DNA of 64,000 bases from an uncultured Rhodospirillaceae bacterium (GTDB taxonomy: Bacteria; Pseudomonadota; Alphaproteobacteria; SP197), in contig CAZGYG010000003.1 in the NCBI GenBank assembly GCA_964530335.1, forward strand, positions 23,792 through 87,791, read 5' to 3'. The notes beneath the pieces were generated by a model that was not told where the DNA came from, made no database searches, and saw nothing but the letters and a program-made list of their open reading frames with translations. Position 1 is the stretch's first letter, and each line of letters opens with the position of its first letter. This document shows, one piece after another, positions 3,573 through 31,413 of this stretch. The translations under genes and the position numbers were made by a program.

Positions 3573-3582
3573 GCCCGATGCC

Positions 3583-8312: not shown

Positions 8313-8509
8313 ATCCAACCCTCCCCGTGGCGCGCGACCGAAGTCGATCCGACCACCGCCGCCCCGTCGCGTCAACGTAGCGCCCGGCCAAACCCGGTCA
8401 ACAGCTTTCGGGGCTCGCGCTTCTTGGGGCCCGCTCTGGCCCCGGCGCGGCCGTTGCGGCACAATGACCCGGTCCGGGGCGCGGTCCGGGCGGCGGAGAA
8501 ACCGGCTTC

Positions 8510-10370: not shown

Positions 10371-10470
10371 GGTCCGACCGTCACGGCGCCGGTCGTCATG
10401 GTGTTGGCCGGGCCTTCCGCCGGGCGGCAGGGTCGGGCAGACTGCGCCGGTGATTCGGCCGAGGGCTGGC

Positions 10471-11316
10471 GTGACGTCGAAGGTGACTTCCAGGCAAGGC
10501 GATTTCTTCGTTCGGTTCTGGGGCGTGCGCGGCAGCATCCCGTGCCCGGGGCCCGACACCGTGCGCTACGGCGGCAACACGAGCTGCCTCGAGGTGCGTT
10601 GCGGCGAGCACCTGCTGATCTTCGACGCCGGCACCGGGCTCCGGCTGCTCGATCGCGCCCTCGGCGACGGGGCGCTCGACGCCGACGTGCTGTTCACCCA
10701 CACCCATCTCGATCATGTCAACGGCTGGGCCTTCTTCACGCATCTGCGCGAGCCCGGAAACCGGTTCGCCGTGTGGGCGGGACACCTGAACGACACGCAC
10801 CGGATCGACGCCGTGCTCGCGCGCTTCCTCGAGGACCCGCTGGCGCCGGTGCACGCCGGCAACCTGGCCGCGGCCCTGACCTACCACGAGTTCCGCCAGG
10901 GCGACAGGCTGACCCCGCGCCCGGGCGTGACCATCCGCACGGCGCGGCTCAACCATCCCAACGACGCGACCGGCTACCGCGTCGAGTATGGCGGACACGC
11001 GATCTGCTACGTCACCGACACCGAGCACCGCGCGGATGTCCGCGATCCGGCGATCCTCGGCCTGATCGAAGGCGCGGACATCTTCATCTACGACGCGACC
11101 TACCGCGACGACGAGTACCCGAAGTACGCCGGTTGGGGCCACTCGACCTGGCAGGAGGGCATGCGGCTCGCCGACGCCGCCAGCGTCGGCACCTACGTCG
11201 CGTTCCACCACGATCCGGGCCACGGCGACGACGCCATGGACGCCATCGCCCACGAGCTCGCCCAGGCCCGCCCCGGCTCGGTTGTCGCGCGCGAGGGCAT
11301 GGTGCTCAGGCCCTAG
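10471..11316 (+). CDS. MBL-fold metallo-hydrolase
   Basis: THTHLDHVNG (HxHxDH) motif. GTG start with GAGGG Shine-Dalgarno 5 nt upstream. The track's upstream ATG at 10369 would overlap the divergent MFS start. Confidence 0.7.
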   Translation: MTSKVTSRQGDFFVRFWGVRGSIPCPGPDTVRYGGNTSCLEVRCGEHLLIFDAGTGLRLLDRALGDGALDADVLFTHTHLDHVNGWAFFTHLREPGNRFAVWAGHLNDTHRIDAVLARFLEDPLAPVHAGNLAAALTYHEFRQGDRLTPRPGVTIRTARLNHPNDATGYRVEYGGHAICYVTDTEHRADVRDPAILGLIEGADIFIYDATYRDDEYPKYAGWGHSTWQEGMRLADAASVGTYVAFHHDPGHGDDAMDAIAHELAQARPGSVVAREGMVLRP

Positions 11317-11321
11317 GCGTC

Positions 11322-12143
11322 ATGGGACGCGGCGCTCGATTCGCCTTCCTCACGGCGTTCGGGATCGCCCGGCTCGGCTTCTTCATTCCGTATCGCCACG
11401 CCGGCCGGGTGCCCGGGCCGGGAACACGCGCGCCCTACGGCCCGATCGAGCGCCTGTTCGCGGCCCACGAGGCCGTGTTCCAGGCCACACTCGATCGGGT
11501 CGAGGACCAGTGCCAGGCGCTCGAGTCGATCGGCGGCCGTCCGCCGGCGCCACGCTGGGACCAGGACTGGTTCCCCCGGCTCGACGCCGCGGTCGCGTAC
11601 ACGCTCGTGCGCGCGGCCCGGCCGCGCCTCATCGTCGAGGTCGGCTCGGGCCACTCGACCCGGTTCCTGGCCCGGGCGGTCGCGGACGAAGGCTCGGCCA
11701 CGCGCATCGTCGCCATCGACCCGCAACCGCGCGCGCGAATTCCCGCCGTCGAGCACCTCGCCCGCGACCTTGGCGCCGTCGGTCACGGGATATTCGGCGC
11801 GCTCGGCGCCGGCGACGTCCTGTTCATCGATTCGAGCCACATCCTGATGCCGGGCACCGACGTGGACGTGCTGCTCAACCGGGTGCTGCCGGTGTTGCCG
11901 GCGGGCGCGCTGGTGCACGTCCACGACGTGTTCCTGCCCGACGACTACCCACCGGCGTGGTCGTGGCGCGGCTACAACGAGCAGCTCGGCATCGCCGCGC
12001 TGCTGAACGGCGGTGGCTGGCAGCCTCTGTTCGCCAGCCGCTACGTCATCACCCGCCGCCCGGAATGGCTGAAGGGCGTGCTCGCCCGCCTGCCGCTGGT
12101 GCCTGGCGCGCTCGAGACCAGCCTGTGGCTCAGGAAGCGCTGA
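11322..12143 (+). CDS. Class I SAM-dependent methyltransferase (cephalosporin-hydroxylase-like O-methyltransferase fold)
   Basis: IVEVGSGHST glycine-rich SAM motif; 273 aa from the first sensible ATG inside the 2.7-kb spurious track ORF. Confidence 0.7.
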   Translation: MGRGARFAFLTAFGIARLGFFIPYRHAGRVPGPGTRAPYGPIERLFAAHEAVFQATLDRVEDQCQALESIGGRPPAPRWDQDWFPRLDAAVAYTLVRAARPRLIVEVGSGHSTRFLARAVADEGSATRIVAIDPQPRARIPAVEHLARDLGAVGHGIFGALGAGDVLFIDSSHILMPGTDVDVLLNRVLPVLPAGALVHVHDVFLPDDYPPAWSWRGYNEQLGIAALLNGGGWQPLFASRYVITRRPEWLKGVLARLPLVPGALETSLWLRKR

Positions 12144-12150
12144 CGCGCCG

Positions 12151-12852
12151 TCACGGCATGTCGAACACCAGGATCTCGGACTCGGCGCCGGTGCCGGCGA
12201 TGGTGAGCGCGCCTTCGGCCGTGATCGCCGCGCCGTCGCCCTGGCCGAGTTCCTGGCCATCGAGCGTGACCGCGCCCAGCGCGACCTGCACCCAGGCGCG
12301 GCGACCCTGCGCGAGCTCGTGGCGCACAGACTGGCCTTGCGCGAGCACGGCCGCCAGGATCGTGGCGTCCTGGTGCACGGCGACCGCGGCGCCCGAGCCG
12401 GCCGGCCCGGCGATCGGCGCGAGCCGCCCGGCGAGAGTCTCGCGCGCCACCGCCTGCTGCTCGTAGCCGGGCGCGAGCCCGGCGCGGTCGGGCACGATCC
12501 AGATCTGCAGCAGGTGGACCGGCTGGGTCCGGGAATCGTTCATCTCGCTGTGCTGGATGCCGGTGCCGGCGCTCATGCGCTGCACGTCGCCCGGCCGGAT
12601 GACCGAGCCGTTGCCCAGGCTGTCCTTGTGGCCGAGCGCGCCCTCGAGCACCCAGGTCACGATCTCCATGTCGCGGTGGCCGTGGGGCGGGAAGCCGGCG
12701 CCGGGCGCCACCCAATCCTCGTTGATGACGCGCAGCGCCCCGAACCCCATGTGGTCCGGGTCGAAATACTCGGCGAACGAGAACGTGTGCCGGCTGTCGA
12801 GCCAATCGAACTTCGACCGGCCACGCTCCACCGCCAGGCGAAGCGCGATCAC
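12151..12852 (-). CDS. Pirin-family cupin protein (YhhW-like)
   Basis: VIALRLAVERGRSKFDWLDSRHTFSFAEYFDPDHMGFGALRVINED...MSAGTGIQHSE matches the pirin N-terminal signature. GTG start forming a GTGA overlap with the upstream permease stop. Confidence 0.85.
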   Translation of the reverse strand: MIALRLAVERGRSKFDWLDSRHTFSFAEYFDPDHMGFGALRVINEDWVAPGAGFPPHGHRDMEIVTWVLEGALGHKDSLGNGSVIRPGDVQRMSAGTGIQHSEMNDSRTQPVHLLQIWIVPDRAGLAPGYEQQAVARETLAGRLAPIAGPAGSGAAVAVHQDATILAAVLAQGQSVRHELAQGRRAWVQVALGAVTLDGQELGQGDGAAITAEGALTIAGTGAESEILVFDMP

Positions 12853-14021
12853 CGGTAGGGGTCGGCCGCGTCGCGCAAGCCGTCGCCCAGGAAATTGAAC
12901 GCCAGCACGATGATGATGACCGGCACCACCGGCATCATCAGCCACGGGTAGAGCGCGACGACGTTGATGTTCTGCGCCTCGTTGAGCAGCACGCCCCAGC
13001 TCGTGATCGGCGGCCGGAGCCCCAGCCCGAGGAACGACAGCGCCGTCTCGCCCAGGATCATCGCCGGCACCGACAGGGTGGCCGAGGCGATCAGGTGGCT
13101 GGTGAAGCTCGGCACAAGGTGGCGGAAGATGATGCGCGGCGGGCGCGCGCCGAGCAGCATGGCGGCGGTGGCGAAGTCCTCCTCGCGCAGCGCCAGCAGC
13201 TTCGAGCGCACGGCCCGTCCGAGCCCGGTCCAATCGAGCAGGCCGAGGATGATGGTGATGCCAAAGTAGATGAAGATCGGGTTCCAGTTGACCGGCAACG
13301 CCGCCGACAGCGCCATCCACAACGGCAGCTCGGGGAAGCTGCGCAGGATCTCGATCAGGCGCTGCACCACGCTGTCGACCCAGCCGCCGTAGTAGCCGGC
13401 GAGCCCGCCGAACACCAGCCCGAGGACGAAGCTGATCGTGATGCCGACCAGCCCGATGGTCAGCGAGATGCGCGCGCCCACCACCATGCGCGACATCACG
13501 TCGCGCCCCAGCCGGTCGGTGCCGAACAGGAAGAACGTGCCGTCCTCGGCCGGGCAGACCAGGTGGAGCCGCATCGGCACCATGCCCCAGAACCGGTAGT
13601 CGTCGCCCAGGCACAGGTAGCGCAGGCGATCGACCTTGCCCAGGTTCGGCGTGTAGATGCGCTTGAGCGTGTCCATGTCGAGCCGGTAGTCGTAGCCGTA
13701 GACGAACGGTCCGACGAATTGGCCGTCGTGGAACAGATGCATGCCTTGGGGCGGGGCGTAGATGGAGTCCGTGTGCCGGGTGTGCAGGTTGTAGGGCGCG
13801 ATGAGCTCGGCGATCAGCATGGTCGTGTAGCAGAACGCGAGCACCAGCCCGGAGATCACGGCGAGCTTGTGGCGGCGGAACTTCCACCACATGAGCCGCC
13901 ACTGCGACGCTAGGTAATAGCTCTCCTGCTCGGCCGTCATCGCCTCGACGGCGTAAGCGTCGAACGGCGCGGCGGAAACGTAACGCTGAACGCGCCCCTC
14001 GGCGCCGGTCTGGTCGGTCAT
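12849..14021 (-). CDS. yejE: ABC transporter permease, YejE/OppC-like
   Basis: Binding-protein-dependent permease signature. Its ATG and the TGA of the upstream permease share 14021. Confidence 0.8.
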   Translation of the reverse strand: MTDQTGAEGRVQRYVSAAPFDAYAVEAMTAEQESYYLASQWRLMWWKFRRHKLAVISGLVLAFCYTTMLIAELIAPYNLHTRHTDSIYAPPQGMHLFHDGQFVGPFVYGYDYRLDMDTLKRIYTPNLGKVDRLRYLCLGDDYRFWGMVPMRLHLVCPAEDGTFFLFGTDRLGRDVMSRMVVGARISLTIGLVGITISFVLGLVFGGLAGYYGGWVDSVVQRLIEILRSFPELPLWMALSAALPVNWNPIFIYFGITIILGLLDWTGLGRAVRSKLLALREEDFATAAMLLGARPPRIIFRHLVPSFTSHLIASATLSVPAMILGETALSFLGLGLRPPITSWGVLLNEAQNINVVALYPWLMMPVVPVIIIVLAFNFLGDGLRDAADPYR

Positions 14022-15016
14022 CAGCGCGAGGCTCCGCCGCCGAGCCGGATGCGCGGGTCGAGAAACGCGAGCGCGATGTCGGACAGCAGCACGCCGATCA
14101 CGGTCAGGAACGCGAGGCACATCAGGAACGACCCGGCCAGGTACATGTCCTGGGTGCGCAGCGCGTTCAGCAGCATCGGCCCCGTGGTCGGCAGCGACAG
14201 CACGACCGAGACGATCGCCGCGCCCGAGATGACCTGGGGCAGCAGGTTGCCGATGTCGGCGATGAACGGGTTGAGCGCCATGCGCAGCGGGTACTTAAAG
14301 AGCGCGCGCAAGGGCGGCATCCCCTTGGCCCGCGCCGTGACCACATACTGGCGTTGCAGCTCGTCGAGCAGATTGGCGCGCAAGCGCCGGATCATGCCCG
14401 CGGTGCCCGAGGTGCCGATGACGATGACCGGTACCCACAGGTGCTCGAGGATCGAGACGAACTTGCCCCAGCTCCACGACGCTTCCAGGTACTCCGGGTC
14501 CATCAGCCCGCCGATCGAGGTGCCGAACCACACGTTCGCGACGTAGAGCAGGACCAGCGCGAACAGGAAATTGGGCGTGGCGAGCCCGAGGAATCCGACC
14601 AGGGTGAGCGCGTAGTCGCCGGGCGAATACTGGTGGGTGGCCGAATAGACGCCGATCGGGAACGACACCAGGTAGGTGAACAGGATGGTGGCGAACGAGA
14701 CGATTAAGGTGAGCACGAGCTGCCCGCCGATGACGTCCGCCGCCGGCACGCCGAACTCGAACGACTGGCCGAAGTCGCCCTGCAGGAGCCCGCCGAGCCA
14801 GACGACGTACTGGCGCCACATGGGCTGGTCGAGCCCGTACTCCTCGCGCAGGAACTCGATCTTCTCGTCGGCCGCCTCGCCCTGGGCCTCGAGCTCGGCC
14901 ATATAGGTCGTCAGGTAGTCGCCCGGCGGCAACTGGATGATGATGAAGGTGATCAGGCTGATGCCGATCAGCGTCGGCACCATGAGCAGGATGCGCTGGG
15001 CGAGGTAGGCCAGCAT
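14021..15016 (-). CDS. yejB: ABC transporter permease, YejB/OppB-like
   Basis: MLAYLAQRILLMVPTLIGISLITFIIIQLPPGDY N-terminus, typical of DppB/OppB-family permeases. Confidence 0.8.
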   Translation of the reverse strand: MLAYLAQRILLMVPTLIGISLITFIIIQLPPGDYLTTYMAELEAQGEAADEKIEFLREEYGLDQPMWRQYVVWLGGLLQGDFGQSFEFGVPAADVIGGQLVLTLIVSFATILFTYLVSFPIGVYSATHQYSPGDYALTLVGFLGLATPNFLFALVLLYVANVWFGTSIGGLMDPEYLEASWSWGKFVSILEHLWVPVIVIGTSGTAGMIRRLRANLLDELQRQYVVTARAKGMPPLRALFKYPLRMALNPFIADIGNLLPQVISGAAIVSVVLSLPTTGPMLLNALRTQDMYLAGSFLMCLAFLTVIGVLLSDIALAFLDPRIRLGGGASR

Positions 15017-15019
15017 CGC

Positions 15020-16942
15020 TCAGCCGCCCGCCTCGCCGCTCGGCGTGAACCAGAAGGTGTCGGGCCGGTAGACGCCGAATTGGGCGCCGGGCTCCCAGTT
15101 GAAGATCGCCTCCTCGGGCACGTTGTTGAGCCGGTCGCTGACCACCACCGGCTGCAGCGTGCCGGCGATCAGGCCGATGGTGAACACCTGTGCGGCGTGG
15201 ATCGCCAGCATGCGGCGCCAGATCGCTTCGCGCGCCTCGGTCGTGGCGGCGCGCCGCCAGGCCTCGTTCAGCGTCATCAGCTCCTCGGCCGCGGGCAGGT
15301 CCGGCGCCTCGCCCGACTGGCCCCCGGTCTCGAAGTACTGGCCCCACATCGGCCATTGCAACGCCTGCTGGGTGGTCGGCGCGAACTCGAACGGGCTCAT
15401 GTCGGCGGTCGGCACGCCGTTCTCGTAGCCCGACCACACCGCCACGAGGGTCTGCCCGGAGAACACCCGGTTGCGCAGGACCTCGCGCTGCATCGGCCGC
15501 GAGTAGAGCTTGATCCCGGCCGCCAGCCAGGTGTCGTGGACCAGCTCGAGCACGTCGGTCTGCTCGGTGTCCTCGCCGGCGGTCTCGACCACGATCTCGA
15601 GCGGCCGGCCGTCGGGCATCAGGCGCACGCCCCGGTCGTCGCGCTCGGTCAGGCCGATCGCGTCGAGCAGCCGGTTGGCCTTCTCGAGGTCGAACACGGC
15701 CCAGGCCTTGGCGTAGGTTTCGCGGTAGAGCGGGCTTTGCTTGAGCACGGTGTTGGTCACCTCCTGGGCAAGCCCGTAGTAGATGACCTGGTTGATCTCG
15801 TGCCGGTCGATGGCGAGCGAGAGCGCGCGGCGGAAGCGCACGTCGCGCAGCAGCGCGCGCCAGGTCGGATCGGCGACGTTGAGGTTGGGGAACAACGCGA
15901 GCTGGGCGCCGACCGCGGTGCGCCACAGCCGCACGCGGTAGCCGTTGCGCTCCTCGCCCTCCTTGAGGAACGTGTAGTTGTTGAAGTTGAGGCCGCGCGC
16001 CTGCAACGTGACCTCGCCGGCGCCGGTCTTGGCCGGGATCAGCTTGCTGTCGACGACATCGAGCACGACCCGGTCGATGTAGGGCAACTGGCGGCCATCG
16101 GCGTCGATCCGATGGTAGTAGGGGTTGCGCACCGCGACGAAGCGCGTCGCCGGCGTCGCGTTGGTGATCTGCCACGGCTGCAACGTCGGCAGGTCCGGGT
16201 TGTCGCAGCGGTACAGGCTGTCGAGGCTGTTGTAGAGCGACGCCCAGTTGCTCTTGCCTTCCGCCTGGGCCCGGGCGTCGAGCGCCGCCCGATCGGCGTA
16301 GCCGGCGTGGAACGCCTTCAGGTAGTGGGCCGGGGCGTAGATGTCGAGCGGCGTGGTCGCTGCGATCGCCGGCAGGAAGAACGGGTTGGGCTCGGTCCAG
16401 GCGTAGCGCACGGTGAGCTCGTCGGGGAACTCGACCGTCGGGGGCTCGCCCGCGACGATCAACACCCGGGGCGGCCCGCTCGAGCTGATCTCGGGGTCGT
16501 TCGCCACGTCCTGCCACCAGAAGCGGAAGTCCTCGGCCGTGAACGGCTGGCCGTCGGACCACTTGTGGCCCGGGCGCAGGTGCAGGGTGAAGACGCGGCC
16601 GCCCTCGACGTCGACGCGGGCCACGAGGTCCGGCACCAGGTTGAAATCCACGTCGTAGCCGACCAGCCGGGCGTAGCCGTAGACCGTGAGCAGCCGTACG
16701 TCCCGCTCGCGGTGGATCATGGTGTGCAGATCGCCGCCGTAGGCGCCCGGCGTCCGTCCCGGCCCGGGCATGACGACCAGCGGCTCGGCGGGCACGCGCT
16801 GCTCGACCGGCGGCAGGTCGCCGCGCAGCACCGCGTCGGCGAAATACGGCGGTTCGACCGGCGCCGGCGACTGAGCCGTCGCCGCCGTCGCCGCCAAGGC
16901 GAGTGCGAACGTGGCGGCGAGCGCGGAGATGACCGGGCGCAC
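15020..16942 (-). CDS. yejA: Periplasmic family-5 substrate-binding protein, extended YejA type (640 aa) with signal peptide
   Basis: N-terminal signal MRPVISALAATFALALAATAATAQS; size and architecture match YejA-type SBPs. Confidence 0.8.
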   Translation of the reverse strand: MRPVISALAATFALALAATAATAQSPAPVEPPYFADAVLRGDLPPVEQRVPAEPLVVMPGPGRTPGAYGGDLHTMIHRERDVRLLTVYGYARLVGYDVDFNLVPDLVARVDVEGGRVFTLHLRPGHKWSDGQPFTAEDFRFWWQDVANDPEISSSGPPRVLIVAGEPPTVEFPDELTVRYAWTEPNPFFLPAIAATTPLDIYAPAHYLKAFHAGYADRAALDARAQAEGKSNWASLYNSLDSLYRCDNPDLPTLQPWQITNATPATRFVAVRNPYYHRIDADGRQLPYIDRVVLDVVDSKLIPAKTGAGEVTLQARGLNFNNYTFLKEGEERNGYRVRLWRTAVGAQLALFPNLNVADPTWRALLRDVRFRRALSLAIDRHEINQVIYYGLAQEVTNTVLKQSPLYRETYAKAWAVFDLEKANRLLDAIGLTERDDRGVRLMPDGRPLEIVVETAGEDTEQTDVLELVHDTWLAAGIKLYSRPMQREVLRNRVFSGQTLVAVWSGYENGVPTADMSPFEFAPTTQQALQWPMWGQYFETGGQSGEAPDLPAAEELMTLNEAWRRAATTEAREAIWRRMLAIHAAQVFTIGLIAGTLQPVVVSDRLNNVPEEAIFNWEPGAQFGVYRPDTFWFTPSGEAGG

Positions 16943-16945
16943 GGC

Positions 16946-18819
<1,874 letters not shown>

Positions 18820-18823
<4 letters not shown>

Positions 18824-19329
18824 GCCGGCTCCCGGGCGCCCGCGACCTCGGCGGCGAGGTGGCCGAGCGCTCCCAGGTTGGCGCGGGTCGCCTCGCCGAG
18901 CCGGACGCCGTTGGCGCGCGCCGCCGCGAACGCGGCGCCGACGATGGCTTCGAACCCGGTGACCGCGGAATCGACGGTGACCGCCCGCCCTCGGCGCGCC
19001 CGCACGCGGAGCTGCATCCAGCCTTGGGAGCGGTCGCGGCGGGTCGGGAAGAACGACAGCTTCAAGCGGTCGAGCTCGCGCCAGTCCACGCGCGCGGGCC
19101 ACGGCCCGCGGACCACGAGCGTGTCCTCGTCGCAGCCGATCGCGGTGGCGTGGCGCGCCGCCGTGCGCGCGCCGAACAGGGCGAACAGCAGGGCGATCGC
19201 GCCCAGCGTCCACGCCACCGCCGGCGCCGCCGGCACCAGAACGAGCGGCCCGGCGCTGAGCGACAGCCCCGCCGCCGCGCGGACATAATCCCCGGCGAGC
19301 GCGGCGAAGGGATAGCGGTGCTGGGTCAC
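18820..19329 (-). CDS. Small predicted membrane protein (about 169 aa), translationally coupled on both sides
   Basis: Hydrophobic segment [37 protein letters not shown] overlap with the deacetylase stop and ATGA overlap with the yejF start. Confidence 0.45.
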
Positions 19330-20081
19330 CGCGCCAGCCCGAAGGCTTCGCTCGCCGCGATCCAGCGCGCGCGCGGATGGTCGCCGATCAGCGCGGCGAA
19401 GCGTTCGACGAAGCGCCACGACGCCTCGTCGTGGGCGGCGTGATGGGTCAGCAGGCCGACCGGCTCGGCGGCGTCCCGTTCGCCCGCCCGGCAGGCGCCC
19501 AGGTGGGTCACGGCGGCGGAAAGCACCGCCGCGTCACCGATGAAGCCGCGGCCCTGGTGCCAGGCGATGAGGTCGAGGTGGGCGTTGACCACGGCGAGCC
19601 CGTCGCGCACCGGCCGGGCGCGCGGCCCGAAACCCGACAGCCCCCGGTACCCGGCCTGGGCGAGCCGCCCGATCAGCGCCTCGGCGATGCGGTTCCACGG
19701 CGGCACCAGCACCGGGAGCGCGCGCAACCGCTCGGTCAACAGGGCAAGCCCGCGCTTCAGCGCGGCAAGCGCGCGCTCGGGCGCGAACTCGCCGCCGAGC
19801 TCGATCCGCTTGGCGCCTTCGGGCGCGTGGTTGGCGTGGTCCCAGCCGTGTTGCAGCACCTCGATGCCGGTCTCGGCGAGCAGCGCGGCACCGGCGTCGT
19901 CCAGGCGCGCCGGGACCGCGGCGACCGCCAGGGGAATGGCGAGCGCACGCCGCAGCGCGACCAGGCGTTCAAGCGCCGGCGTCGCCCCCCCGGCGTCGTC
20001 GTCGCGCCACCAGAAGCGCGACTCGAGCCCGGCGTCCGCGCGCCGGTCGAGCTCGTCACTGAGCGCGCGCCACGTCGGCAT
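19326..20081 (-). CDS. Polysaccharide deacetylase family protein (NodB/CE4-like)
   Basis: FWWRDDD motif, then [10 protein letters not shown]; start at [13 protein letters not shown]... Confidence 0.65.
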
Positions 20082-21213
20082 GGCCCGATCCCGCCCAGCG
20101 TTCGATGAGTACGGCGCTGCGCTCCGCGCCCGCCAGATCGACGGCACCCGCGGGCGGGCGGGGCAGGACGGCGACGCGCGCCACCAATTCCCCCAGCGCC
20201 ACCGGCGCGAGATCGGTTGCGGCGATGACATGGACGAGCCCCATTTCCGCCAAACGTCCGGCCCGCGCGGCCTGCTCGGTCTGCCCTGGGGCCGAAAAAG
20301 GCACGACAACCGCCCTCGCCCGCACCGCCAGCACATCGGTCATCGTATTATACCCGGCTTGCGAAACCGAGACAGCGCAATTCGCCAGGAGTTGGCGGAA
20401 ATCCGGCCGATTCGACTCGACCGTGACGTTCGCGCCCGCGCCCTGCGCGAGCCGGTCGCGATCCTGGACGAGCCCCGGCCCGACAAGAAGGCGCCAGCGC
20501 CGCGCCGGGTCGAGCGCCGCGGCACCGAGCGCCGCCGCCATCAGCGCCGCGCCGACCGCGCCACCGCCGGCGGAGACGACGATCTCGCCCCGGCCGGGGC
20601 CGTCAGGGGCAGCGGCTTCCGGCGAATGCGCCACGTAGCCGGTGTACAACGTGCGTTCGGCGAACGAGGCGGCCAAGGGAAAGCTCGCCTCCAAGTCGAT
20701 GACGCGCGGATCGCCGTGCACGAGCAGGGCGTCGAGCTCGGCCCGCGCCGCGGCGGCCATGGCGGCCTCGCGTTCCGGGTCGTTCCGCGTCACCAGGATG
20801 TCGCGCACCGACCCGACTACGACCGCCGGCGCGCCGCGCGCGGCCGCGATCACGGCCTGGAACTCCGCCGCCAGCTTGCGCCGGCCGAACGGGTAGTGCT
20901 CGACCACGACGATCCGTGGCCTCCTCGCGCGGAACGCGTCGAGCACGGCGGCGTGGCGTGCCGCCAGCAGGCTCGCGCCGACCGGATGCCCGTCGCCATC
21001 GACCAGGCGGCGAAAGCTCGCGTCCTCGGCCCGCACCGGCGGCAGTTGAACGACGTCGACGCCGTCAGACGCCATGCCGGATACCGGCAGGCCGCCGCTG
21101 ACCAGGGTGGTCGCGACGCCGCGCCGGGCCAGCGCCCGCGCGATCAGCAGGGCCCGCGCGAGATGGCCGGTCCCCAGGAGATGGCTGACCAGGATCAGGG
21201 CGCGCCGCGTCAC
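20056..21213 (-). CDS. Glycosyltransferase, COG4671/GT28-related (paralog of 24145..25371)
   Basis: N-terminal LILVSHLLGTGHLARALLIARAL motif, paralogous to the LIYSHDTFGLGHLRRCRTIAHAL gene upstream. GTG start in GTGA overlap with the histidine-phosphatase stop. Confidence 0.65.
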   Translation of the reverse strand: MTRRALILVSHLLGTGHLARALLIARALARRGVATTLVSGGLPVSGMASDGVDVVQLPPVRAEDASFRRLVDGDGHPVGASLLAARHAAVLDAFRARRPRIVVVEHYPFGRRKLAAEFQAVIAAARGAPAVVVGSVRDILVTRNDPEREAAMAAAARAELDALLVHGDPRVIDLEASFPLAASFAERTLYTGYVAHSPEAAAPDGPGRGEIVVSAGGGAVGAALMAAALGAAALDPARRWRLLVGPGLVQDRDRLAQGAGANVTVESNRPDFRQLLANCAVSVSQAGYNTMTDVLAVRARAVVVPFSAPGQTEQAARAGRLAEMGLVHVIAATDLAPVALGELVARVAVLPRPPAGAVDLAGAERSAVLIERWAGSGHADVARAQ

Positions 21214-21794
21214 GGCGCGGCGAGGGGTACGTTGAGCCGCACGACCTTGGGCTGGCCGTCGGGGGCGAGCTCGAACACCTGGGCGCGGCCGAAGTCGATC
21301 TTGACCGGTGGCGCGCCGAGGAAATCCCAGCCCGTGGCCAGCCCGACCACGGCGCGGATGACGCCCTTGTGACTGACCGCGGCGATCGCGCCGCCGTGGG
21401 CGATCTCGGCCAGCCAGGGGCGGATTCGCGCCTGCACCTGGCGCGGGCTTTCCCCGCCGGGCGGGCGGAAATCGAGCCCGCGCGCCTCGTTGGCGGCCAG
21501 GCCATCGGGGTCCTCGAGGCCGAGCTCCGCTAGGGTGCGCCCTTCCCACTGGCCCCAGTCCATCTCGATCAGGCGCGGCTCGATGCCGGCCGCGACGCCG
21601 AGGATGGCCGCCGTGTCGCGCGCGCGGCTGAGCGGACTGGTGTACCAGCGCGCGGCCCGGGCCTCCTCGGGCAGGCGCCAGGTCGCGACCTCGGCCCGGC
21701 CGGCTTCGCTCAGCGGCACGTCGAGCCGGCCCTTCAGCCGGCGCACGGCCGTGGCCTGGGTGCGGCCATGACGCAGCAGGACCAGATGGGTCAT
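21210..21794 (-). CDS. Histidine phosphatase (phosphoglycerate-mutase-like) family protein
   Basis: MTHLVLLRHGRT catalytic RHG motif; 194 aa; ATGA overlap with the upstream GT stop. Confidence 0.8.
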   Translation of the reverse strand: MTHLVLLRHGRTQATAVRRLKGRLDVPLSEAGRAEVATWRLPEEARAARWYTSPLSRARDTAAILGVAAGIEPRLIEMDWGQWEGRTLAELGLEDPDGLAANEARGLDFRPPGGESPRQVQARIRPWLAEIAHGGAIAAVSHKGVIRAVVGLATGWDFLGAPPVKIDFGRAQVFELAPDGQPKVVRLNVPLAAP

Positions 21795-22903
21795 CGCACC
21801 GCGATGGCGATGGCGCGCTCGAGTGCGCGGTGTGCCGCGTCGGGTCCGTGGCGGCGCGCGACCCAAGACTTGGCGCGGCGGCCCAAGGCGTGGCGCGTGT
21901 CCGCGTCGACCAGCAAACGGCGCACGGCGGCGGCGAACGCAACGTCGTCGCCGGGCGGCACCAGGATGCCGGATGAGCCGTCGCGCACGACCGTCCGCAC
22001 CCCTGGCTCGGCGCCCGCGATCACGGGCAGGCCGGCCGCCTGCGCTTCCAGGTACGCCATGCCGTAGGCTTCTCCCACGCCGGGCCAGACGAACACATCG
22101 GCCGAGGCGTAATACGCCGGCAGGGACGTTGGGCGCAACGCGCCGGCCCAGCGCACCCGCGCGCCGAGCGGGCCGAGCGCCCGCGAGCACGCCGCGGCCG
22201 CGGCGCCGTCGCCGACGACGATGAGCTGCCATGGGACATCGCGGACCAGGCCCAACGCCCGGCCGAGCCGTTGGTACGACCGGGTCTTGTCGCCCGGACG
22301 CATCATGGCGACGGTCAGCAGCCAGGGCACGCGCGCGTCCAGCCCGTGCCGCCAGGCGAGCCGCGCCCGCCGGCCTCCCGCCCTGGCGAACGGCCGGGGA
22401 TCGAGGAACGGCGGCAGCCGCACGATCCGCCGCGCCGGCACGATGCCACGGATTCCGGGCATGTCGTCGTCGCTCATCACCAGCACCGCGTCGGCGGCCC
22501 GGATCGCGGCCAGCGCGCCCTGGTAGCCGATCGCCCATGGTCCGGCCCGCCGTTTCGGCGCGTGCGAGGCCTCGGCGATCACGTAGGGGATGCCGAGCGC
22601 GCCGGCGACCCTAGGCCCGATCCAGTCGGGCGCCTTGTGATGGACGTGGTAGGTGAACCACAGGTCCGGGCGCCGGCTATGGCGCCACCTGGCGATCAGG
22701 CGATCGGCCACGCGCTCGGCCCGGACGCGGATCGCGGCCTGAACCTCGGCGTCGCCCGCGCCGTCGAAGGCACGCAGCCGCGTCGCCACCGCCACGTCGT
22801 GGCCGGCGGCGAGTGCCCCCAGCAGCGCCCGCGCCATGCGCCTGTCGCCCGAGGGCGTCGGATGATCGGGCGGCTTCATCGGCGCGTAGAAGGCGATGCG
22901 CAC
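21791..22903 (-). CDS. Glycosyltransferase family 1 (GT4-type)
   Basis: GT1 C-terminal EAYGMAYLEAQAAGLPVIA motif. Confidence 0.8.
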   Translation of the reverse strand: MRIAFYAPMKPPDHPTPSGDRRMARALLGALAAGHDVAVATRLRAFDGAGDAEVQAAIRVRAERVADRLIARWRHSRRPDLWFTYHVHHKAPDWIGPRVAGALGIPYVIAEASHAPKRRAGPWAIGYQGALAAIRAADAVLVMSDDDMPGIRGIVPARRIVRLPPFLDPRPFARAGGRRARLAWRHGLDARVPWLLTVAMMRPGDKTRSYQRLGRALGLVRDVPWQLIVVGDGAAAAACSRALGPLGARVRWAGALRPTSLPAYYASADVFVWPGVGEAYGMAYLEAQAAGLPVIAGAEPGVRTVVRDGSSGILVPPGDDVAFAAAVRRLLVDADTRHALGRRAKSWVARRHGPDAAHRALERAIAIAVR

Positions 22904-22907
22904 GGGA

Positions 22908-24134
22908 TCAGCCGGCGATGCCGAACTTCGCCGCCAGGAGGTCGATGCCCGCCGCCATGGCGAAGTCGCGCTCGACCCGTGCCCGGCCGGCCCGGCCCAG
23001 ACGCGCCCGCGCCCCTGGGTCCGCGATCAGGCGGGCGATCGCCTGGGCAATCGCCGCCGGGTCGCCGGGCGGCGCCAGCACGCCGTTGACGCCGTCCTCG
23101 ACCAGCTCGGGCACCGCCGCGATGCGGGTGGCGATGACGGGCAATTCCTGGCTCTGGGCCTCGACCAGCACGTTGGGCAGGCCGTCGCGGTCGCCGTCGG
23201 CGGCCACGACCGGGGTCAGGACGAACAGGTCGGCGGCGCGATAGGCGTCGAGCACGCGCTCCTGCGGCTGGGCGCCCTGCCACGCGATGCGCCCGTCGAG
23301 CCCGAGGCGATGGGCCTGGCGGGCGAGGCGCGGGCCGAGCTCGCCGCCGCCGATGTGAACGAGGCGCCAGGCCAGGTTGGACGGCACGCGCGCGAGCGCG
23401 GCGAGCAGGTCGTCGAGCCCCTTCTTCGGCACCGCGCGCGCGACGCACAGCAGCACCACCGGATCCCCTGCATCGCCGCCGTCGCGCATCGGGCGCGCGG
23501 CTTGGGGCGGCGTGAAGCGCGCGAGATCGAGCCCGTGATAGGCCAAGGCGACCCGGCCGGGCGGCGCCACCGGCTCGAGCGCGGCCAGCCCCGCGCGGCT
23601 GCACGTCACCGCGAACCGGCATTCGGCCAGCTTCTCGCGCTGCTCCCAAGCCGGCGTGGTCCAGATGTCCTTGGCGTGGGCCGACACCGACCATGGCAGC
23701 CCGGTCATCAGCGCGGCGTAGCGCACGACCGAGGCCGGAGTGTGCAGGAAGTGGGCGTGCAGCCAGGCGACCGCGCCGGCCTGTTCCACCGCCAGCACGC
23801 ACGCCTGGCCGAACCGGCGCACCCGGTTGGGGCTCGGGTCGCGCGCGAGGTCGCCGAGCCAGGCGCGCCAGGCACCCCTGTAGCCGGGCAGCCGGCGCGC
23901 CCGCCACCACGCGCGCGCGACCCGGAGCGGCGCGTGCCACAGGTACTCGGGCAGGTACGCGATGGGCGCCCGGATCGCCCGATGCACCGGATGGACGGCG
24001 CGGTCGGTGGGCCGGCGCAGCGAGACGATGCGAATGTCGAGGCCGCGGCGCTCCAGCGCCAGGATTTCCTGGGCGATGAAGGACTCCGACAGCCGGGGAT
24101 AGCCCTTGAGGACGAAGGCGACCGGACCGTTCAC
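22908..24134 (-). CDS. Glycosyltransferase family 1 (WcaL-like)
   Basis: GLPNVLVEAQSQELPVIATR GT1 motif; 408 aa. Confidence 0.8.
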   Translation of the reverse strand: MNGPVAFVLKGYPRLSESFIAQEILALERRGLDIRIVSLRRPTDRAVHPVHRAIRAPIAYLPEYLWHAPLRVARAWWRARRLPGYRGAWRAWLGDLARDPSPNRVRRFGQACVLAVEQAGAVAWLHAHFLHTPASVVRYAALMTGLPWSVSAHAKDIWTTPAWEQREKLAECRFAVTCSRAGLAALEPVAPPGRVALAYHGLDLARFTPPQAARPMRDGGDAGDPVVLLCVARAVPKKGLDDLLAALARVPSNLAWRLVHIGGGELGPRLARQAHRLGLDGRIAWQGAQPQERVLDAYRAADLFVLTPVVAADGDRDGLPNVLVEAQSQELPVIATRIAAVPELVEDGVNGVLAPPGDPAAIAQAIARLIADPGARARLGRAGRARVERDFAMAAGIDLLAAKFGIAG

Positions 24135-24144
24135 CGGGCGGCTG

Positions 24145-25371
24145 TCATCCCGATCGTGCCAGCGCGAGCCCGCGCGATCGGAGGGGATCGAGCCCGAGCT
24201 CGACCAGGCGATTGACGTTCTCGAGGCCGTCGAGCAGCCCGGGGATGACGACCGAGGACGGCAGCGCCTGCTGCGGCAACTGGCGCAGCGCGGTCACCAT
24301 GCGCTGGGGGTCGCGCTTGCCGTCGTCGTCGAGCATGGTCACCAGGCCCAGCTCGGCGGCCCGCCGGGTGCGGATGTACTGCTCCATGCGCGGCACCTTG
24401 CGCGGCACGATCAAGGCCCGCTTATCGAGCGACACGATCTCGCAGAACGTATTGTAGCCGCCCATGGCGACGACGCCGGCGGCATGCGACATCAGCGACT
24501 CCATGTAGGCGTCGAAGGTGATCGCCGTGACCGTGCGCAGTCGGGCGACGCGGCGCTGGAAATCGGCCACGGTCTCGGGCTGCATGAATGGGCCGAACAC
24601 GACCAGCGCCGGCCACGGCGGGCGCGCGGGCGATTCGTAGGCCCCGAGCACCCAGTCGACCAGCGCTTCGCCGTCGCCGCCGCCGCCCGGCGTGACCAGC
24701 AGGTACGGCCGGTCGATGTCGATCGGCGCGCGCACGCTGGGCATCGTGTCGGACACCGTGCGCCGCAGATAGCCGGTGAACACGGTCTTGCGGCGCACCG
24801 ACTTGGGCAGGTTGATGTCGGCGATCGGATCCCAGATCTGGGGCAGGCCGTAGACCCAGATCTCGTCGTAGAGGTCGCGCAGCGCCGGCCCGGCGCCCTT
24901 GCGCTTCCATTCGGGACCGAGGTGCGCCGACTCGTCGAGCACGTCGCGCAGGCCGAGCACGAGGCGCGTGCCGCGCGCCTTGAGCGATTCGAGCGTCTCC
25001 TTGACCTCGCCGCGCAGGCCCAGCGGCTCCTTGTCGACGATGAACAGGTCCGGGTCGAAGATCTCCGCCGTGTGGCGGATGATCGACGCCCGCATGGCCA
25101 GCGTCTCCTCGATGTCGATGTGCAGGTTGAGCGAGGTGTATTCGCCGTTGCGCAGCTTGATGACGCCCGGGACGCGGACGAAATCGACCCGGGCGCGGAA
25201 GTCGAAGCTGCCGATGATCGGCGATCCCGACAGGATCAGGACCGACACGTCGCGAAAGTGCTCGACCAGGGCGTGCGCAATGGTGCGGCAGCGCCTGAGG
25301 TGGCCGAGGCCGAAGGTGTCGTGACTGTAGATGAGGACGCGTGGTCCCATCCCAGCGGCTCGCACAACCAT
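24145..25371 (-). CDS. Glycosyltransferase, COG4671/GT28-related
   Basis: Start at ATG (MVVRAAGMGPRVLIYSHDTFGLGHL...) with a GGGGAGGGGAGG Shine-Dalgarno 7 nt upstream. The track begins 10 codons earlier at a GTG. Confidence 0.7.
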   Translation of the reverse strand: MVVRAAGMGPRVLIYSHDTFGLGHLRRCRTIAHALVEHFRDVSVLILSGSPIIGSFDFRARVDFVRVPGVIKLRNGEYTSLNLHIDIEETLAMRASIIRHTAEIFDPDLFIVDKEPLGLRGEVKETLESLKARGTRLVLGLRDVLDESAHLGPEWKRKGAGPALRDLYDEIWVYGLPQIWDPIADINLPKSVRRKTVFTGYLRRTVSDTMPSVRAPIDIDRPYLLVTPGGGGDGEALVDWVLGAYESPARPPWPALVVFGPFMQPETVADFQRRVARLRTVTAITFDAYMESLMSHAAGVVAMGGYNTFCEIVSLDKRALIVPRKVPRMEQYIRTRRAAELGLVTMLDDDGKRDPQRMVTALRQLPQQALPSSVVIPGLLDGLENVNRLVELGLDPLRSRGLALARSG

Positions 25372-25544
25372 CTTCGCGCCTCCCCTCCCCGAAAAAGGCA
25401 CGCCGGCGGGGGACTATGCCACAGGGCTGGGCGGCGGGGCGAGTCTACCCGGGCGGGTCCCCGACCGGCCCCCAAGGCCCACTGTACCCCAGCGAAGCCC
25501 TGGGTTAAGGTGCCGAACCTTGCCGCGATGGCCGGTCGGGAGCC

Positions 25545-28208
25545 ATGGAACCAAGTATCCTTCGGTATATTTTCCGATTTTCAAAACGACAGCAAATACA
25601 AATTGTTATCATAACGGCAATCTCCCTGCCGTTCTATTATGCGTCCCTCGATGTTCCCAAGCTCATCGTAAATAATGCGTTAGACGGTGGCCCACAGGAT
25701 TTCCCAAAACCCTTCTCGGTGCTTGGGTATAACCTGATTGGTCTCGAGCAGGTGCCGCTGCTTTATGCGTTCTGCGCCCTGTTCCTGGTTCTCGTTTTGA
25801 TCAACGGCGCCTTCAAGTACTACATCAACGTCCAGAAGGGCATCCTGGGCGAGCGGATGCTGCGCCGGCTGCGCTTCCAGCTGCTCGCGCGCGTGCTGCG
25901 CTTCCCGCTGCCGCACTTCCGCCGGGTCAGTTCGGGCGAGATCATCCCGATGATCACCTCCGAGGTCGAGCCGCTCGGTGGCTACATCGGCGATGCCATC
26001 GTCCAGCCGCTCTACCAGGGCGGGCTGCTGCTGACCGCGATCTTCTTCATCTTCGCCCAGGACCTCTACATGGGCATCGCGGCCATCGCGCTCTACCCCG
26101 TGCAGGGCTATCTCATCCCCAAGCTGCAGCGCCGCGTCAACCTGCTCGGCAAGGAACGGGTACGCGAGGTGCGCAAGCTCTCCGAGCGCATCGCCGAGGC
26201 GACGGCGGTCGCCCAAGAGGTCCATGGCCACGACGCGGCGCGCTACGAGCTCGCGGACTTCGCCGTGCGCTTCGGGCGCATCTACCACATCCGCAACCGC
26301 ATCTTCATCCTCAAGTTCCTCGCCAAGTTCCTCAACAACTTCATCTCCCAATTGACGCCGTTCCTGTTCTTCTCGATCGGCGGCTACTTCGTCATCCAGG
26401 GCGGGCTCTCGCTCGGCGCGCTGGTCGCCGTGCTCGCCGCCTACAAGGACCTGCCAGGCCCGTGGAAGGAGCTGCTGGACTACTACCAGATCAAGGAGGA
26501 CTCCCGGATCAAGTACGAGCAGGTGGTCAGCCAGTTCGATCCGCCGGGCATGCGCGACGAGGCGCTCGTCGGCGGCGACCGCGACGATCCGCCGCCGCTC
26601 GCCGGTGCCCTCGAGGTCGCCAACCTCGGCCTCGCCGATGACGGCGACCAGATCCTCGAGAACGTCAGCCTCAAGGCGCCGCTCGGCTCGCGGCTCGCCC
26701 TGGTCGGGGACTCGGCCAGCGGCAAGACCGAGCTCACGCTGCTGCTGGCCCGGCTGCTCGATCCGTCCAAGGGTCGCGTCGTCGTGGGCGGCGTCGACCT
26801 CAAGGACGCGCCCGAGGCCCTGACCGGGCGGCGCATCGCCTACGTCGGCCCGACCACCAGCCTGCTGTCGGCGCCCCTCTTCGACAACCTGACCTACGGG
26901 CTCAAGCACCGCCCGCTCAAGGAGGTCGAGTACCTGGCGCCGACCGCGGTCCAGCAGCGCCGCCGCGACATCGTCGAGGCGGAGAAATCGGGCAACGCGC
27001 CCGACGACATCAACGCCGATTGGATCGATTACGCGGCGGCGGGCGTGACGCCCGAACGGCTGGTCGGCAGCATTGTCGCTGCCCTCGACGTCGCCGACAT
27101 GACCGGCGACGTCTACCAGTACGGGCTGCGCGGTACGCTCGACCCGGTGCTGCGCCCGGACGCGGCCAGGCGGGTGCTCGACGCCCGCGCCGCTCTGCCC
27201 GACCTGCTGGCCGATGCCGGGGTCGCCGACCTGGTCGAACCGTTCCACCCCGAACGCTACAACTCGAACGCCACCCTCGCCGAGAACCTGCTGTTCGGCA
27301 CGCCGCGCGGCGATACGTTCGCCTTCGATCGGCTGGCCGGCAACGCTTACGTGCGCAAGGTGCTCGACGACACCGGCCTGACCGGCGATCTGCTCGTCAT
27401 GGGCTACGAGGTGGCGCAGACGATGATCGAGCTGTTCGCCGATCTGCCGCCCGAGCACGAGTACTTCGCCCAGTTCAGCTTCATCCGGCTCGAGGACCTG
27501 CCGGACTTCCAGGCGATCGTGCGCAAGGCCGAGCCCGAACACCTGGACCGGCTTGCCGAGGGCGATCGGCTCAAGCTGCTGTCGCTGCCGTTCCAGCTCG
27601 TGCCGGCGCGCCACCGGCTGGGCAATATCGATGACGCGATGCGCGAACGGCTGCTGGTCGCGCGCCGCGCCTTCGCCGCCGGGCTGTCGGCCGCCGATCG
27701 CGGCGCCGTCGCCCTGTTCGACCCCGGCGCTTACAACGCGCACGCCTCGCTGCAGGACAACATCCTGTTCGGCAAGCAGGTCTACGGCAAGGCGCACGCC
27801 GCCCAGAAGATCGGCGATCTGATCTCGGATCTGGTCGCGACGTTCGGCCTGCGCGAGATCATCATCGAGGCGGGGCTTGACTATCCGGCCGGCATCGGCG
27901 GCACGCGCCTGACCCAGAGCCAGCGCCAGAAGCTGGCCATCGCGCGCGCTGTGCTCAAGCGCCCGGACGTGCTCATCCTCGGCGAGGCGACGGCGACGCT
28001 CGACGGCCCGGCCCAGGCGAACATCATGGCCAACTTGTTCAAGGCCTTCGAAGGGCGCACCTTGATCTGGGCGCTGCACCGGGCCAGCCTGGCCAAGGCG
28101 TTCGACCAGATCGTCGTGCTCAAGGGCGGCCGGGTCGTCCAGCACGGCACGTACGTGGAGCTTGCCGCCGCGCCCGGCGTCCTCGCCGACCTGGTGGCGG
28201 CCGAATAG
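25545..28208 (+). CDS. Atypical ABC exporter (N-terminal 6-TM domain plus ATPase domain carrying a roughly 350-aa insertion and degenerate motifs)
   Basis: Walker A GDSASGKTEL; signature region LTQSQRQKLAIARAVL (degenerate LSGGQ); Walker B VLILGEATATLD (Asp replaced by Gly); H-loop ALHR. First about 150 nt are markedly AT-richer than the surroundings. Confidence 0.8.
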   Translation: MEPSILRYIFRFSKRQQIQIVIITAISLPFYYASLDVPKLIVNNALDGGPQDFPKPFSVLGYNLIGLEQVPLLYAFCALFLVLVLINGAFKYYINVQKGILGERMLRRLRFQLLARVLRFPLPHFRRVSSGEIIPMITSEVEPLGGYIGDAIVQPLYQGGLLLTAIFFIFAQDLYMGIAAIALYPVQGYLIPKLQRRVNLLGKERVREVRKLSERIAEATAVAQEVHGHDAARYELADFAVRFGRIYHIRNRIFILKFLAKFLNNFISQLTPFLFFSIGGYFVIQGGLSLGALVAVLAAYKDLPGPWKELLDYYQIKEDSRIKYEQVVSQFDPPGMRDEALVGGDRDDPPPLAGALEVANLGLADDGDQILENVSLKAPLGSRLALVGDSASGKTELTLLLARLLDPSKGRVVVGGVDLKDAPEALTGRRIAYVGPTTSLLSAPLFDNLTYGLKHRPLKEVEYLAPTAVQQRRRDIVEAEKSGNAPDDINADWIDYAAAGVTPERLVGSIVAALDVADMTGDVYQYGLRGTLDPVLRPDAARRVLDARAALPDLLADAGVADLVEPFHPERYNSNATLAENLLFGTPRGDTFAFDRLAGNAYVRKVLDDTGLTGDLLVMGYEVAQTMIELFADLPPEHEYFAQFSFIRLEDLPDFQAIVRKAEPEHLDRLAEGDRLKLLSLPFQLVPARHRLGNIDDAMRERLLVARRAFAAGLSAADRGAVALFDPGAYNAHASLQDNILFGKQVYGKAHAAQKIGDLISDLVATFGLREIIIEAGLDYPAGIGGTRLTQSQRQKLAIARAVLKRPDVLILGEATATLDGPAQANIMANLFKAFEGRTLIWALHRASLAKAFDQIVVLKGGRVVQHGTYVELAAAPGVLADLVAAE

Positions 28209-31408: not shown

Positions 31409-31413
31409 GGGCT

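Follow-up and report, generated by a model that had tools for sequence, protein, structure and literature searches.

Glycosyltransferase genes, an Opp-type ABC importer and an MsbA-like exporter in a conserved two-arm locus of Alphaproteobacteria

Why should the genes for an importer of the oligopeptide type be built into an operon for the synthesis of a glycan? The question is raised by a 64,000-nucleotide (nt) stretch of DNA from an uncultured Rhodospirillaceae bacterium (assembly GCA_964530335.1, contig CAZGYG010000003.1, positions 23,792 to 87,791; hereafter, the window), in which twelve consecutive minus-strand genes, running from 25371 down to 12151, encode glycan enzymes (G1-G6), a small membrane protein (G7), an ATP-binding cassette (ABC) importer (G8-G11) and a pirin (G12). 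The G+C content of the window is about 71% and raw lists of open reading frames (ORFs) are therefore noisy; the genes were defined by frame analysis (GC3 and codon-position GC) combined with the mapping of start codons, and the boundaries of G2-G7 were matched by an independent gene caller on an identical Logan metagenomic contig, so that the operon drawn in a first-pass annotation of this DNA stands in its full extent. The reading that we favour, tentatively and with somewhat less than even confidence, is that the system to which these genes belong produces a soluble amino-sugar oligosaccharide or glycoconjugate, exports it and takes it up again, with a cyclic nucleotide as the controlling signal.

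The eleven junctions of the operon comprise five 4-nt overlaps (ATGA at G3/G4 and G7/G8; GTGA at G4/G5, G6/G7 and G11/G12), a 1-nt overlap (TGATG) at G10/G11, four gaps of 3-10 nt (10 nt at G1/G2, 4 nt at G2/G3, and 3 nt at both G8/G9 and G9/G10) and a 26-nt overlap at G5/G6. The rule initially proposed, that every junction is an ATGA/GTGA overlap or a gap of at most 10 nt, thus holds for nearly all junctions and fails at G5/G6. Chance does not account for this packing: the 4-nt overlaps on either side of G7 (G6/G7 and G7/G8) are shared by most of some 70 homologous loci. A GGAGG Shine-Dalgarno site lies upstream of G1; scans of the twelve-gene operon found no sigma-70-like promoter on the operon strand, no match to any Rfam family, and two terminator-like sites, compared with 4.1 expected by chance, neither of them at a junction. 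A TATAAT near 20340 was discarded as an internal promoter because its letters spell codons of a motif, GYNT, that is invariant in the glycosyltransferase. As judged from sequence, the twelve genes are one translationally coupled transcription unit that forms one arm of a conserved alphaproteobacterial two-arm locus.

The other arm, which is needed to understand the system, was missed in the first-pass annotation. Across a 173-bp intergenic region (25372-25544), which presumably holds both divergent promoters, G1 faces the gene for an MsbA-like (type IV) ABC exporter of 887 residues (25545-28208, plus strand; ABC_membrane and a split ABC_tran domain), followed by the gene for a stand-alone cyclic-nucleotide-binding protein of 152 residues (28238-28696, plus strand; PF00027 at 1e-19, no DNA-binding domain). 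Scans of the intergenic region found neither a consensus sigma-70 site nor an inverted repeat. MsbA is the best model for the exporter (209.3 bits), with the cut-off of the MsbA equivalog TIGR02203 (602) not reached, and HepA and glucan-exporter models also match below threshold. About 270 additional residues (approximately 465-735) are inserted into the nucleotide-binding domain, and the segment that follows the Q-loop looks as if it had been partly triplicated, with the motif [SA]xLx[DE]N[LI]x[FY]G occurring three times, at residues 443, 576 and 734; this long form (879-1034 residues) is conserved in relatives. The gene for the cyclic-nucleotide-binding protein always directly follows that for the exporter (seen so in L084 and L086-L091). 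The first 200 nt or so of the exporter gene (25525-25750) have a G+C content of about 45-55%, compared with the 71% background, and encode an N-terminus that is conserved and has a high content of Ile, Phe, Tyr, Lys and Asn.

The conservation of the two arms was followed through a motif search with G7, which recovered relatives in 492 species genomes; the best 80 loci were taken and the proteins of the window were mapped onto them. Genes upstream of G7 were counted in loci with at least 7 kb on that side (n=58), genes downstream in loci with at least 6.8 kb (n=57), and complete sets in the loci with both flanks (n=46). G1, G2, G3 and G5 were found in 53 of the 58 loci, G6 in 55 and the exporter gene in 50; on the other side, G8 and G11 were each present in 55 of 57 loci, G10 in 56 and the binding-protein gene in 42. 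The complete set (G1, G2, G3, G5, G6, G7, G8, G10 and G11) is kept in 39 of the 46 both-flank loci, and this check of the neighbourhood of the importer genes, which the first-pass annotation had suggested, upholds its central claim, namely that the importer is built into a glycosyltransferase/deacetylase operon: the linkage extends across hundreds of genomes and survives changes of gene order. One locus with the glycosyltransferase genes and G7 and no transporter (L033) was dismissed as an exception because an IS110 transposase gene lies immediately after G7, which marks a disrupted locus.

The rearranged versions are instructive in this respect. In Azospirillum argentinense, G1-G4 diverge from a series that consists of the exporter, the cyclic-nucleotide-binding protein, G5, G6, G7 and G8-G11. 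In Rhizobium etli (pRetIE4803a) and in Sinorhizobium meliloti 1021 (pSymB) and Ak57, the order is adenylate cyclase, G8-G11, G1, G2, G5, exporter and cyclic-nucleotide-binding protein, with G3-G6, an MBL hydrolase and a UDP-sugar dehydrogenase nearby in the R. etli and S. meliloti versions; in S. meliloti, the importer is immediately preceded by a PF14099 polysaccharide lyase. In Sulfitobacter indolifex, G1-G6 precede the exporter, and the locus also contains the importer, an MscS-family channel and a dehydrogenase. The exporter is thus adjacent in the Azospirillum, Rhizobium, Sinorhizobium and Sulfitobacter versions as well. Because the linkage is retained in several different arrangements across three orders of Alphaproteobacteria, it constitutes strong evidence, at the level of gene neighbourhoods, that glycosyltransferases and importer share one function.

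It should be noted that the Rhizobiaceae and Roseobacter versions add genes of their own, for an adenylate/guanylate cyclase, a UDP-sugar dehydrogenase and an MscS-family channel (L092, S. meliloti Ak57, 7323-9649; L090, R. etli, 4391-5752; L093, Sulfitobacter, 9109-12929). Together with the lyase of S. meliloti, these additions may point to a glycan of acidic character and to regulation by osmotic conditions or a cyclic nucleotide.

What, then, might be made by the glycan enzymes? The labels first given to four of them as glycosyltransferases (COG4671 and a paralog, and two GT4 enzymes) and to a fifth as a histidine phosphatase were upheld by matches to PF04101, PF00534/PF13692 and PF00300. 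G1 (24145-25371, the first gene of the operon; 408 residues) encodes a GT28/GT1-like glycosyltransferase of the GT-B type, and G5 (20056-21213; 385 residues) a GT28-like distant paralog of it (29% identity, E = 4e-12); both exceed the PF04101 gathering cut-off of 22, with 24.7 bits for G1 and 28.4 bits for G5. The nearest solved relatives of the profile of this family are MurG (1e-8) and GT1 natural-product glycosyltransferases. Homologs of G1 form more than 8000 clusters, the top 120 at 69% identity or more; across many lineages the identity of G1 stays at about 70%, and with the Rhizobium protein it is 54%. The GT4 glycosyltransferases G2 (22908-24134; 408 residues) and G3 (21791-22903; 370 residues) match Glycos_transf_1 with 112.5 and 88.8 bits, respectively, at a gathering cut-off of 26.4 (G2, PF00534 at 2e-32; G3, PF13692 and PF00534). 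Neither reaches an NCBIfam equivalog model; EpsE and WcaL models match G2 over its full length below threshold, and MshA and BshA appear only as generic GT4 matches.

G4 (21210-21794; 194 residues) encodes a histidine phosphatase of branch 1 (PF00300 at 3.5e-40, 138.2 bits) that starts with MTHLVLLRHGRT and carries the RHG motif at residues 8-10, within LLRHGRT at residues 6-12. A role as alpha-ribazole phosphatase was rejected, since G4 reaches 114.6 with the CobC model, for which the cut-off is 162.9. In the GpgS/GpgP and MshA/MshB pathways, a glycosyltransferase, a phosphatase and a deacetylase act in sequence on a phosphorylated acceptor, and the mycobacterial GpgP is itself a histidine phosphatase. 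By analogy with the GpgS/GpgP or MshA routes, the presence of G4 suggests a phosphorylated acceptor that would be dephosphorylated after glycosylation.

G6 (19326-20081; 251 residues) had been labelled a polysaccharide deacetylase, and it is the predicted structure, not Pfam, that supports the label. The protein has no Pfam or NCBIfam match, Polysacc_deac_1 (PF01522) included, apart from DUF2334 at E = 0.065; its AlphaFold model (predicted local distance difference test score, pLDDT, 96; alignment of 57 sequences) has the deformed (beta/alpha) barrel of the CE4 fold, and peptidoglycan deacetylases are among the top structural matches. D27-D28-D29, H78-x3-H82 and H213-H214 are invariant across the 57 homologs and, by their pattern in the sequence, may correspond to the Asp-His-His metal triad and the catalytic Asp and His motifs of CE4 enzymes. 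The family is thus predicted to be a sequence-divergent branch of CE4. No signal peptide is found at the N-terminus of G6, which is therefore probably a cytoplasmic deacetylase like NodB. In the Nod-factor pathway (NodC/NodB/NodIJ), the cytoplasmic CE4 deacetylase NodB acts on the oligosaccharide before ABC export; the present locus lacks a GT2 chitin-oligomer synthase, an acyltransferase and an ABC-2 exporter. A function like that of the peptidoglycan deacetylase MdaA was rejected because MdaA acts on periplasmic sacculi and G6 has no signal peptide.

The importer has the components of the Opp/Dpp/PepT type, that is, a signal-bearing SBP_bac_5 protein, two BPD_transp_1 permeases (one with OppC_N) and an oligo_HPY ATPase. 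G8 (16946-18823; 625 residues) is a fused double ATPase with two ABC_tran and two oligo_HPY domains; G9 (15020-16942; 640 residues) is a periplasmic family-5 solute-binding protein (PF00496 at 2e-54, 185.7 bits) with an N-terminal signal peptide and the N-terminus MRPVISALAATFALALAATAATAQ; G10 (14021-15016; 331 residues) is an OppB-like permease, BPD_transp_1 with its N-terminal domain; and G11 (12849-14021; 390 residues) is an OppC-like permease (OppC_N and BPD_transp_1). The designation YejABEF, under which the first-pass annotation had placed these genes, did not survive as a statement of orthology. G8 scores 519.6 bits with the YejF model NF011713 (cut-off 834) and 605.7 bits with the GsiA model (cut-off 1077), G10 120.2 with the YejB model NF011712 (cut-off 445) and 233.5 bits with Opp4B, and G11 108.6 with the YejE-type model NF011596 (cut-off 439) and 262.1 bits with Opp4C, so that all three lie below the Yej cut-offs and the GsiA and Opp4 models fit better. 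The term "YejABEF-type" is thus right for the architecture only.

The best clue to the cargo is provided by the binding protein. The closest solved relatives of G9 are a putative OppA of Thermotoga maritima (5IPW, 1.5e-82) and SPH1118 (7e-68), which binds pectin oligosaccharides, not peptide mixtures (PMC9314435). Because SPH1118 is the only one of the two with a defined ligand, a carbohydrate-type cargo is more likely, by analogy, than plain peptides, in line with the preference for an oligosaccharide-like substrate over canonical peptides expressed at the outset. At the position of Trp594, which stacks against sugar in SPH1118, an aromatic residue is conserved throughout the G9 family. The uronate-binding Arg57 and Arg438 correspond to Thr and Asp in G9, and uronate binding was rejected for G9 because neither of these key arginines is conserved.

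Between the two halves of the operon lies G7 (18820-19329; 169 residues), the GTG start of which overlaps the stop codon of G6 and is backed by homologs. Its AlphaFold model (pLDDT 94) has helices at residues 8-31 and 36-61, followed by a beta-sandwich and a helix, and it is predicted to consist of two transmembrane helices and a PH-like domain. The family is well defined, with 98 clusters at 90% identity and about 900 at 50%, and has no Pfam model of its own; one homolog carries PF10756. The small ORF had been thought to hard-wire the importer into the operon, an idea that must be abandoned, as the Rhizobiaceae and Roseobacter versions keep the importer, the glycosyltransferases and the exporter without G7. 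G12 (12151-12852; 233 residues) is indeed a pirin, a YhhW-like bicupin in which both pirin cupins are present (PF02678 at 1e-38, 131.9 bits; PF17954, 81.3 bits), and it is a member of the operon here, as had been stated; however, it is not part of the system, a pirin gene being found in only one of the 57 relatives with sufficient downstream sequence. The pirin is, by its distribution, a lineage-specific passenger incidental to the system, and the comparison of loci shows that neither the pirin nor the small ORF holds the system together.

The sequence analysis thus establishes which genes are present, that the enzymes are located in the cytoplasm, that the binding protein is secreted and which fold the exporter has. 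Taken in sequence, the parts would act as follows. Starting from a phosphorylated or small-molecule acceptor, the glycosyltransferases would assemble a short, soluble oligosaccharide or glycoside, G4 would take off the phosphate, and G6 would turn an N-acetyl (or O-acetyl) sugar into its deacetylated form, unmasking an amino or hydroxyl group. The MsbA-like exporter would then move the product to the periplasm or the outside, gated by a cyclic nucleotide via the 152-residue protein, and the importer, in this lineage aided by the membrane PH-domain protein G7, would retrieve the product or a fragment of it. Pfam and NCBIfam scans of the locus found no polyprenyl-phosphate priming enzyme and no Wzx, Wzy or OPX genes; therefore, the product is probably a short soluble glycan or glycoside and not a classical exopolysaccharide. 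Components related to cyclic nucleotides recur, that is, the binding protein, the adenylate cyclase of the Rhizobiaceae and an MBL hydrolase with a weak match to a phosphodiesterase model. The resemblance of the exporter to MsbA, HepA and glucan exporters also speaks for this scheme. Loops of synthesis, export and recapture are known for metallophores and compatible solutes.

Several observations weigh against this proposal. Fifteen Reyranella-type loci (L022, L024, L029, L039, L045, L046, L053, L058, L060, L063-L065, L068, L070 and L081), in which the gene for the fused ATPase is followed directly by those for the two permeases, have no binding-protein gene in the 20-kb locus. The pathway is not fixed, as there are lineages without G4, without G6 and without G7, G4 being absent from the Stellaceae-type and Rhizobiaceae versions. 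The analogy with SPH1118 is partial, given the loss of the two uronate-binding arginines in G9, and the direction of transport through the Opp-type importer is assumed from its family. The nearest solved relatives of G1 and G5, MurG and the GT1 enzymes, use lipid or hydrophobic acceptors, which would better fit a glycolipid, and the chemistry of the proposed steps is inferred.

A reversed order of events has to be considered first among the alternatives, in which an acetylated oligosaccharide, muropeptide or glycopeptide is imported, deacetylated by G6, extended by the glycosyltransferases and exported by the MsbA-like pump. We regard this as unlikely, even though a number of observations are consistent with it. 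In one lineage (L007-L013) and in L082, only G6-G11 are present, with unrelated genes on the flanks, an arrangement typical of an uptake-and-processing module; the first-pass annotation had named relatives of the importer operon without the glycosyltransferase module as the observation that would count against it, and such relatives do exist to this extent, one lineage having the deacetylase, the small ORF and the transporter with no glycosyltransferase module nearby. In the Rhizobiaceae, the importer genes precede those for the glycosyltransferases and the exporter in one direction, and in S. meliloti the lyase immediately precedes the importer. The peptidoglycan deacetylases among the structural matches of G6 also fit, as does the related PepT system with a fused ATPase, YejBEF-YepA, which imports muropeptides (PMC9790009). 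However, no conserved AmpD, NagZ, LdcA, AnmK or peptide-modifying enzymes are found at the locus, several lineages keep the importer and the glycosyltransferases without G6, and the histidine phosphatase points to a phosphorylated acceptor of cytoplasmic origin, not an imported one. The stand-alone modules of importer, deacetylase and G7 also fit the uptake of a compound made by other cells, which can be accommodated by the cycle of synthesis, export and recapture.

An envelope glycolipid is a less probable product and would, in our estimation, be a surprise. The GT28-like and GT4 enzymes would glycosylate a lipid, the MsbA-like pump would flip it, and the Opp-type complex would, together with G7, traffic or export a head-group component without a binding protein. 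The affinity of the G1/G5 profile to MurG, with its lipid-linked acceptor, and to GT1 enzymes, the ranking of MsbA as best model for the exporter, the predicted membrane anchor of G7, the Reyranella loci devoid of a binding protein, the annotation of the related SapBCDF system as an exporter in NCBIfam and the presence of a lipid-head-group operon (CDP-OH_P_transf, NTP_transf_3 and FA_hydroxylase) next door in the window all agree with this scheme. Nevertheless, most loci encode a secreted binding protein of more than 600 residues with a large cleft, a hallmark of soluble-ligand uptake, no acyltransferase or lipid-synthesis gene is a conserved member of the locus, and the neighbouring lipid operon may be no conserved companion of the system. 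That an ordinary peptide importer was joined to a glycan-synthesis operon by chance and drift, as could be argued from the fact that the Pfam and NCBIfam models matched by G8-G11 without exception represent peptide, nickel or opine families and that tight gene packing is common in high-GC genomes, is very improbable in view of an association kept in 39 of 46 loci and in at least three gene orders across three orders of Alphaproteobacteria, with conserved ATGA/GTGA coupling.

Is there a precedent for making a compound, exporting it and taking it up again by a dedicated importer? In the staphylopine locus cnt, the genes for biosynthesis lie together with those for an exporter and for the Opp-type importer CntABCDF, and the locus thus exemplifies such a cycle with reimport by a PepT-family importer; G8 and G11 match Cnt models below threshold. 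The difference is that the product is an opine metallophore made by enzymes other than glycosyltransferases and that the exporter belongs to another family; no metal-related genes were found at the present locus.

Other known systems share single parts. YejABEF, or YejBEF-YepA, is the microcin C importer of E. coli, a peptide importer in S. meliloti and a muropeptide-recycling system in A. tumefaciens (PMC9790009), and the notion that Yej transporters are stand-alone peptide importers, on which the first-pass annotation had relied, is out of date. The likeness lies in a PepT-family importer with both ATPase domains fused, two permeases and a family-5 binding protein of more than 600 residues, and YejBEF-YepA shows that sugar-containing cargo is possible for such importers. 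In contrast to Yej, the importer described here sits in a locus of glycosyltransferases and an exporter, which has not been described for Yej, and G9 is closest to the T. maritima protein and SPH1118. SPH1118 of Sphingomonas sp. A1, encoded with Opp-like ABC genes and homologous to G9 over its full length, was annotated as peptide-binding, yet binds oligo- and polysaccharide; it serves catabolism and chemotaxis, without a link to biosynthesis (PMC9314435, PMC7055323). The msbA2 operon of S. meliloti (SMb21188-SMb21191) likewise combines cytoplasmic glycosyltransferases with a co-transcribed MsbA-like exporter of an unknown saccharide, without Wzx/Wzy, and the cell is harmed by loss of this exporter only if it has intact glycosyltransferases (PMC3687685, PMC12239276); however, it has no importer and starts with an acyltransferase. 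Identity of the two was rejected, since SMb21188 lies at 938,297 on pSymB (PMC3687685) and the homolog of the present system at 823-846 kb, about 100 kb from the msbA2 operon. The Clr/cAMP-regulated cluster nodP2-smb21248 was likewise rejected, being a different cluster of the Wzx type.

Thus, the individual parts are familiar and the logic of production, export and reimport is established for other metabolites; for the conserved combination, no paper describing it was found in the literature. The further step, that it represents an unrecognised and widespread alphaproteobacterial pathway in which a partly de-N-acetylated oligosaccharide, built in the cytoplasm, is subject to cyclic-nucleotide-gated MsbA-like export and dedicated Opp-type recapture, is more speculative, and we consider it rather doubtful. 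If true, it would establish a new class of glycan that is regulated and lies in the periplasm or outside the cell and which might be an osmoprotectant, a signal or a public good, and genomes that keep the uptake module alone would be "cheaters". The Rhizobiaceae version, with its UDP-sugar dehydrogenase and polysaccharide lyase, could then be responsible for an acidic glycan, glucuronan being one example. According to a 2023 paper, it is unknown which genes serve glucuronan synthesis in rhizobia (PMC10180729), and the dehydrogenase and lyase make this possible link a lead. The proposal would also add to the evidence that alphaproteobacterial "oligopeptide" ABC importers often carry sugars, and many genome annotations would have to be corrected. 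As the combination occurs in hundreds of species, including S. meliloti 1021 (pSymB), Rhizobium etli, R. leguminosarum and Azospirillum, and thus in tractable and agriculturally important bacteria, the hypothesis is directly testable.

Two genes that converge on the operon recur near the system elsewhere. The first encodes an MBL-fold hydrolase (Lactamase_B_2; 10369-11316, plus strand; 315 residues; PF12706 at 1e-20), which lies close to the system in more than 20 loci, those of Azospirillum and S. meliloti among them, and which is possibly a phosphodiesterase, as a weak match to a cyclic-nucleotide phosphodiesterase model (9e-8) suggests. The second encodes an S-adenosylmethionine-dependent methyltransferase of the Methyltransf_24 family (11322-12143, plus strand; 273 residues; PF13578 at 1e-10); DNA homologous to this gene, at the DNA level only, lies downstream of G11 in L005, L014, L025 and L026, and the methyltransferase is a recurrent neighbour that may be an accessory gene. 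Its stop codon and that of the pirin gene on the opposite strand are 7 nt apart (12143-12151), which leaves no room for a terminator, so that the 3' ends of the two transcripts are likely to overlap.

Beyond the second arm, a minus-strand run (28693-33416) encodes an enoyl-CoA hydratase (ECH), an NTP_transf_3 nucleotidyltransferase, a 403-residue protein without a Pfam match, a fatty-acid-hydroxylase family protein and a CDP-alcohol phosphatidyltransferase, and may represent a pathway for an unusual polar-lipid head group; the loci L086-L089 likewise have an ECH gene close to the system. The run is followed by genes for LptF and LptG (33421-35660, minus strand). Farther on, a calcineurin-like phosphoesterase gene (36163-37074, minus strand) adjoins that for a 516-residue protein (36776-38326, plus strand) with a CDP-alcohol phosphatidyltransferase domain in its C-terminal part only. 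At the other end of the window, three Sulfotransfer_1 sulfotransferase genes are arranged in tandem (345-1184, 1936-2901 and 3400-4428, plus strand), and an 843-residue Lon-like protease of the LonB/LonC type (AAA_32, LonC_helical and Lon_C) is encoded at 5931-8462 on the minus strand.

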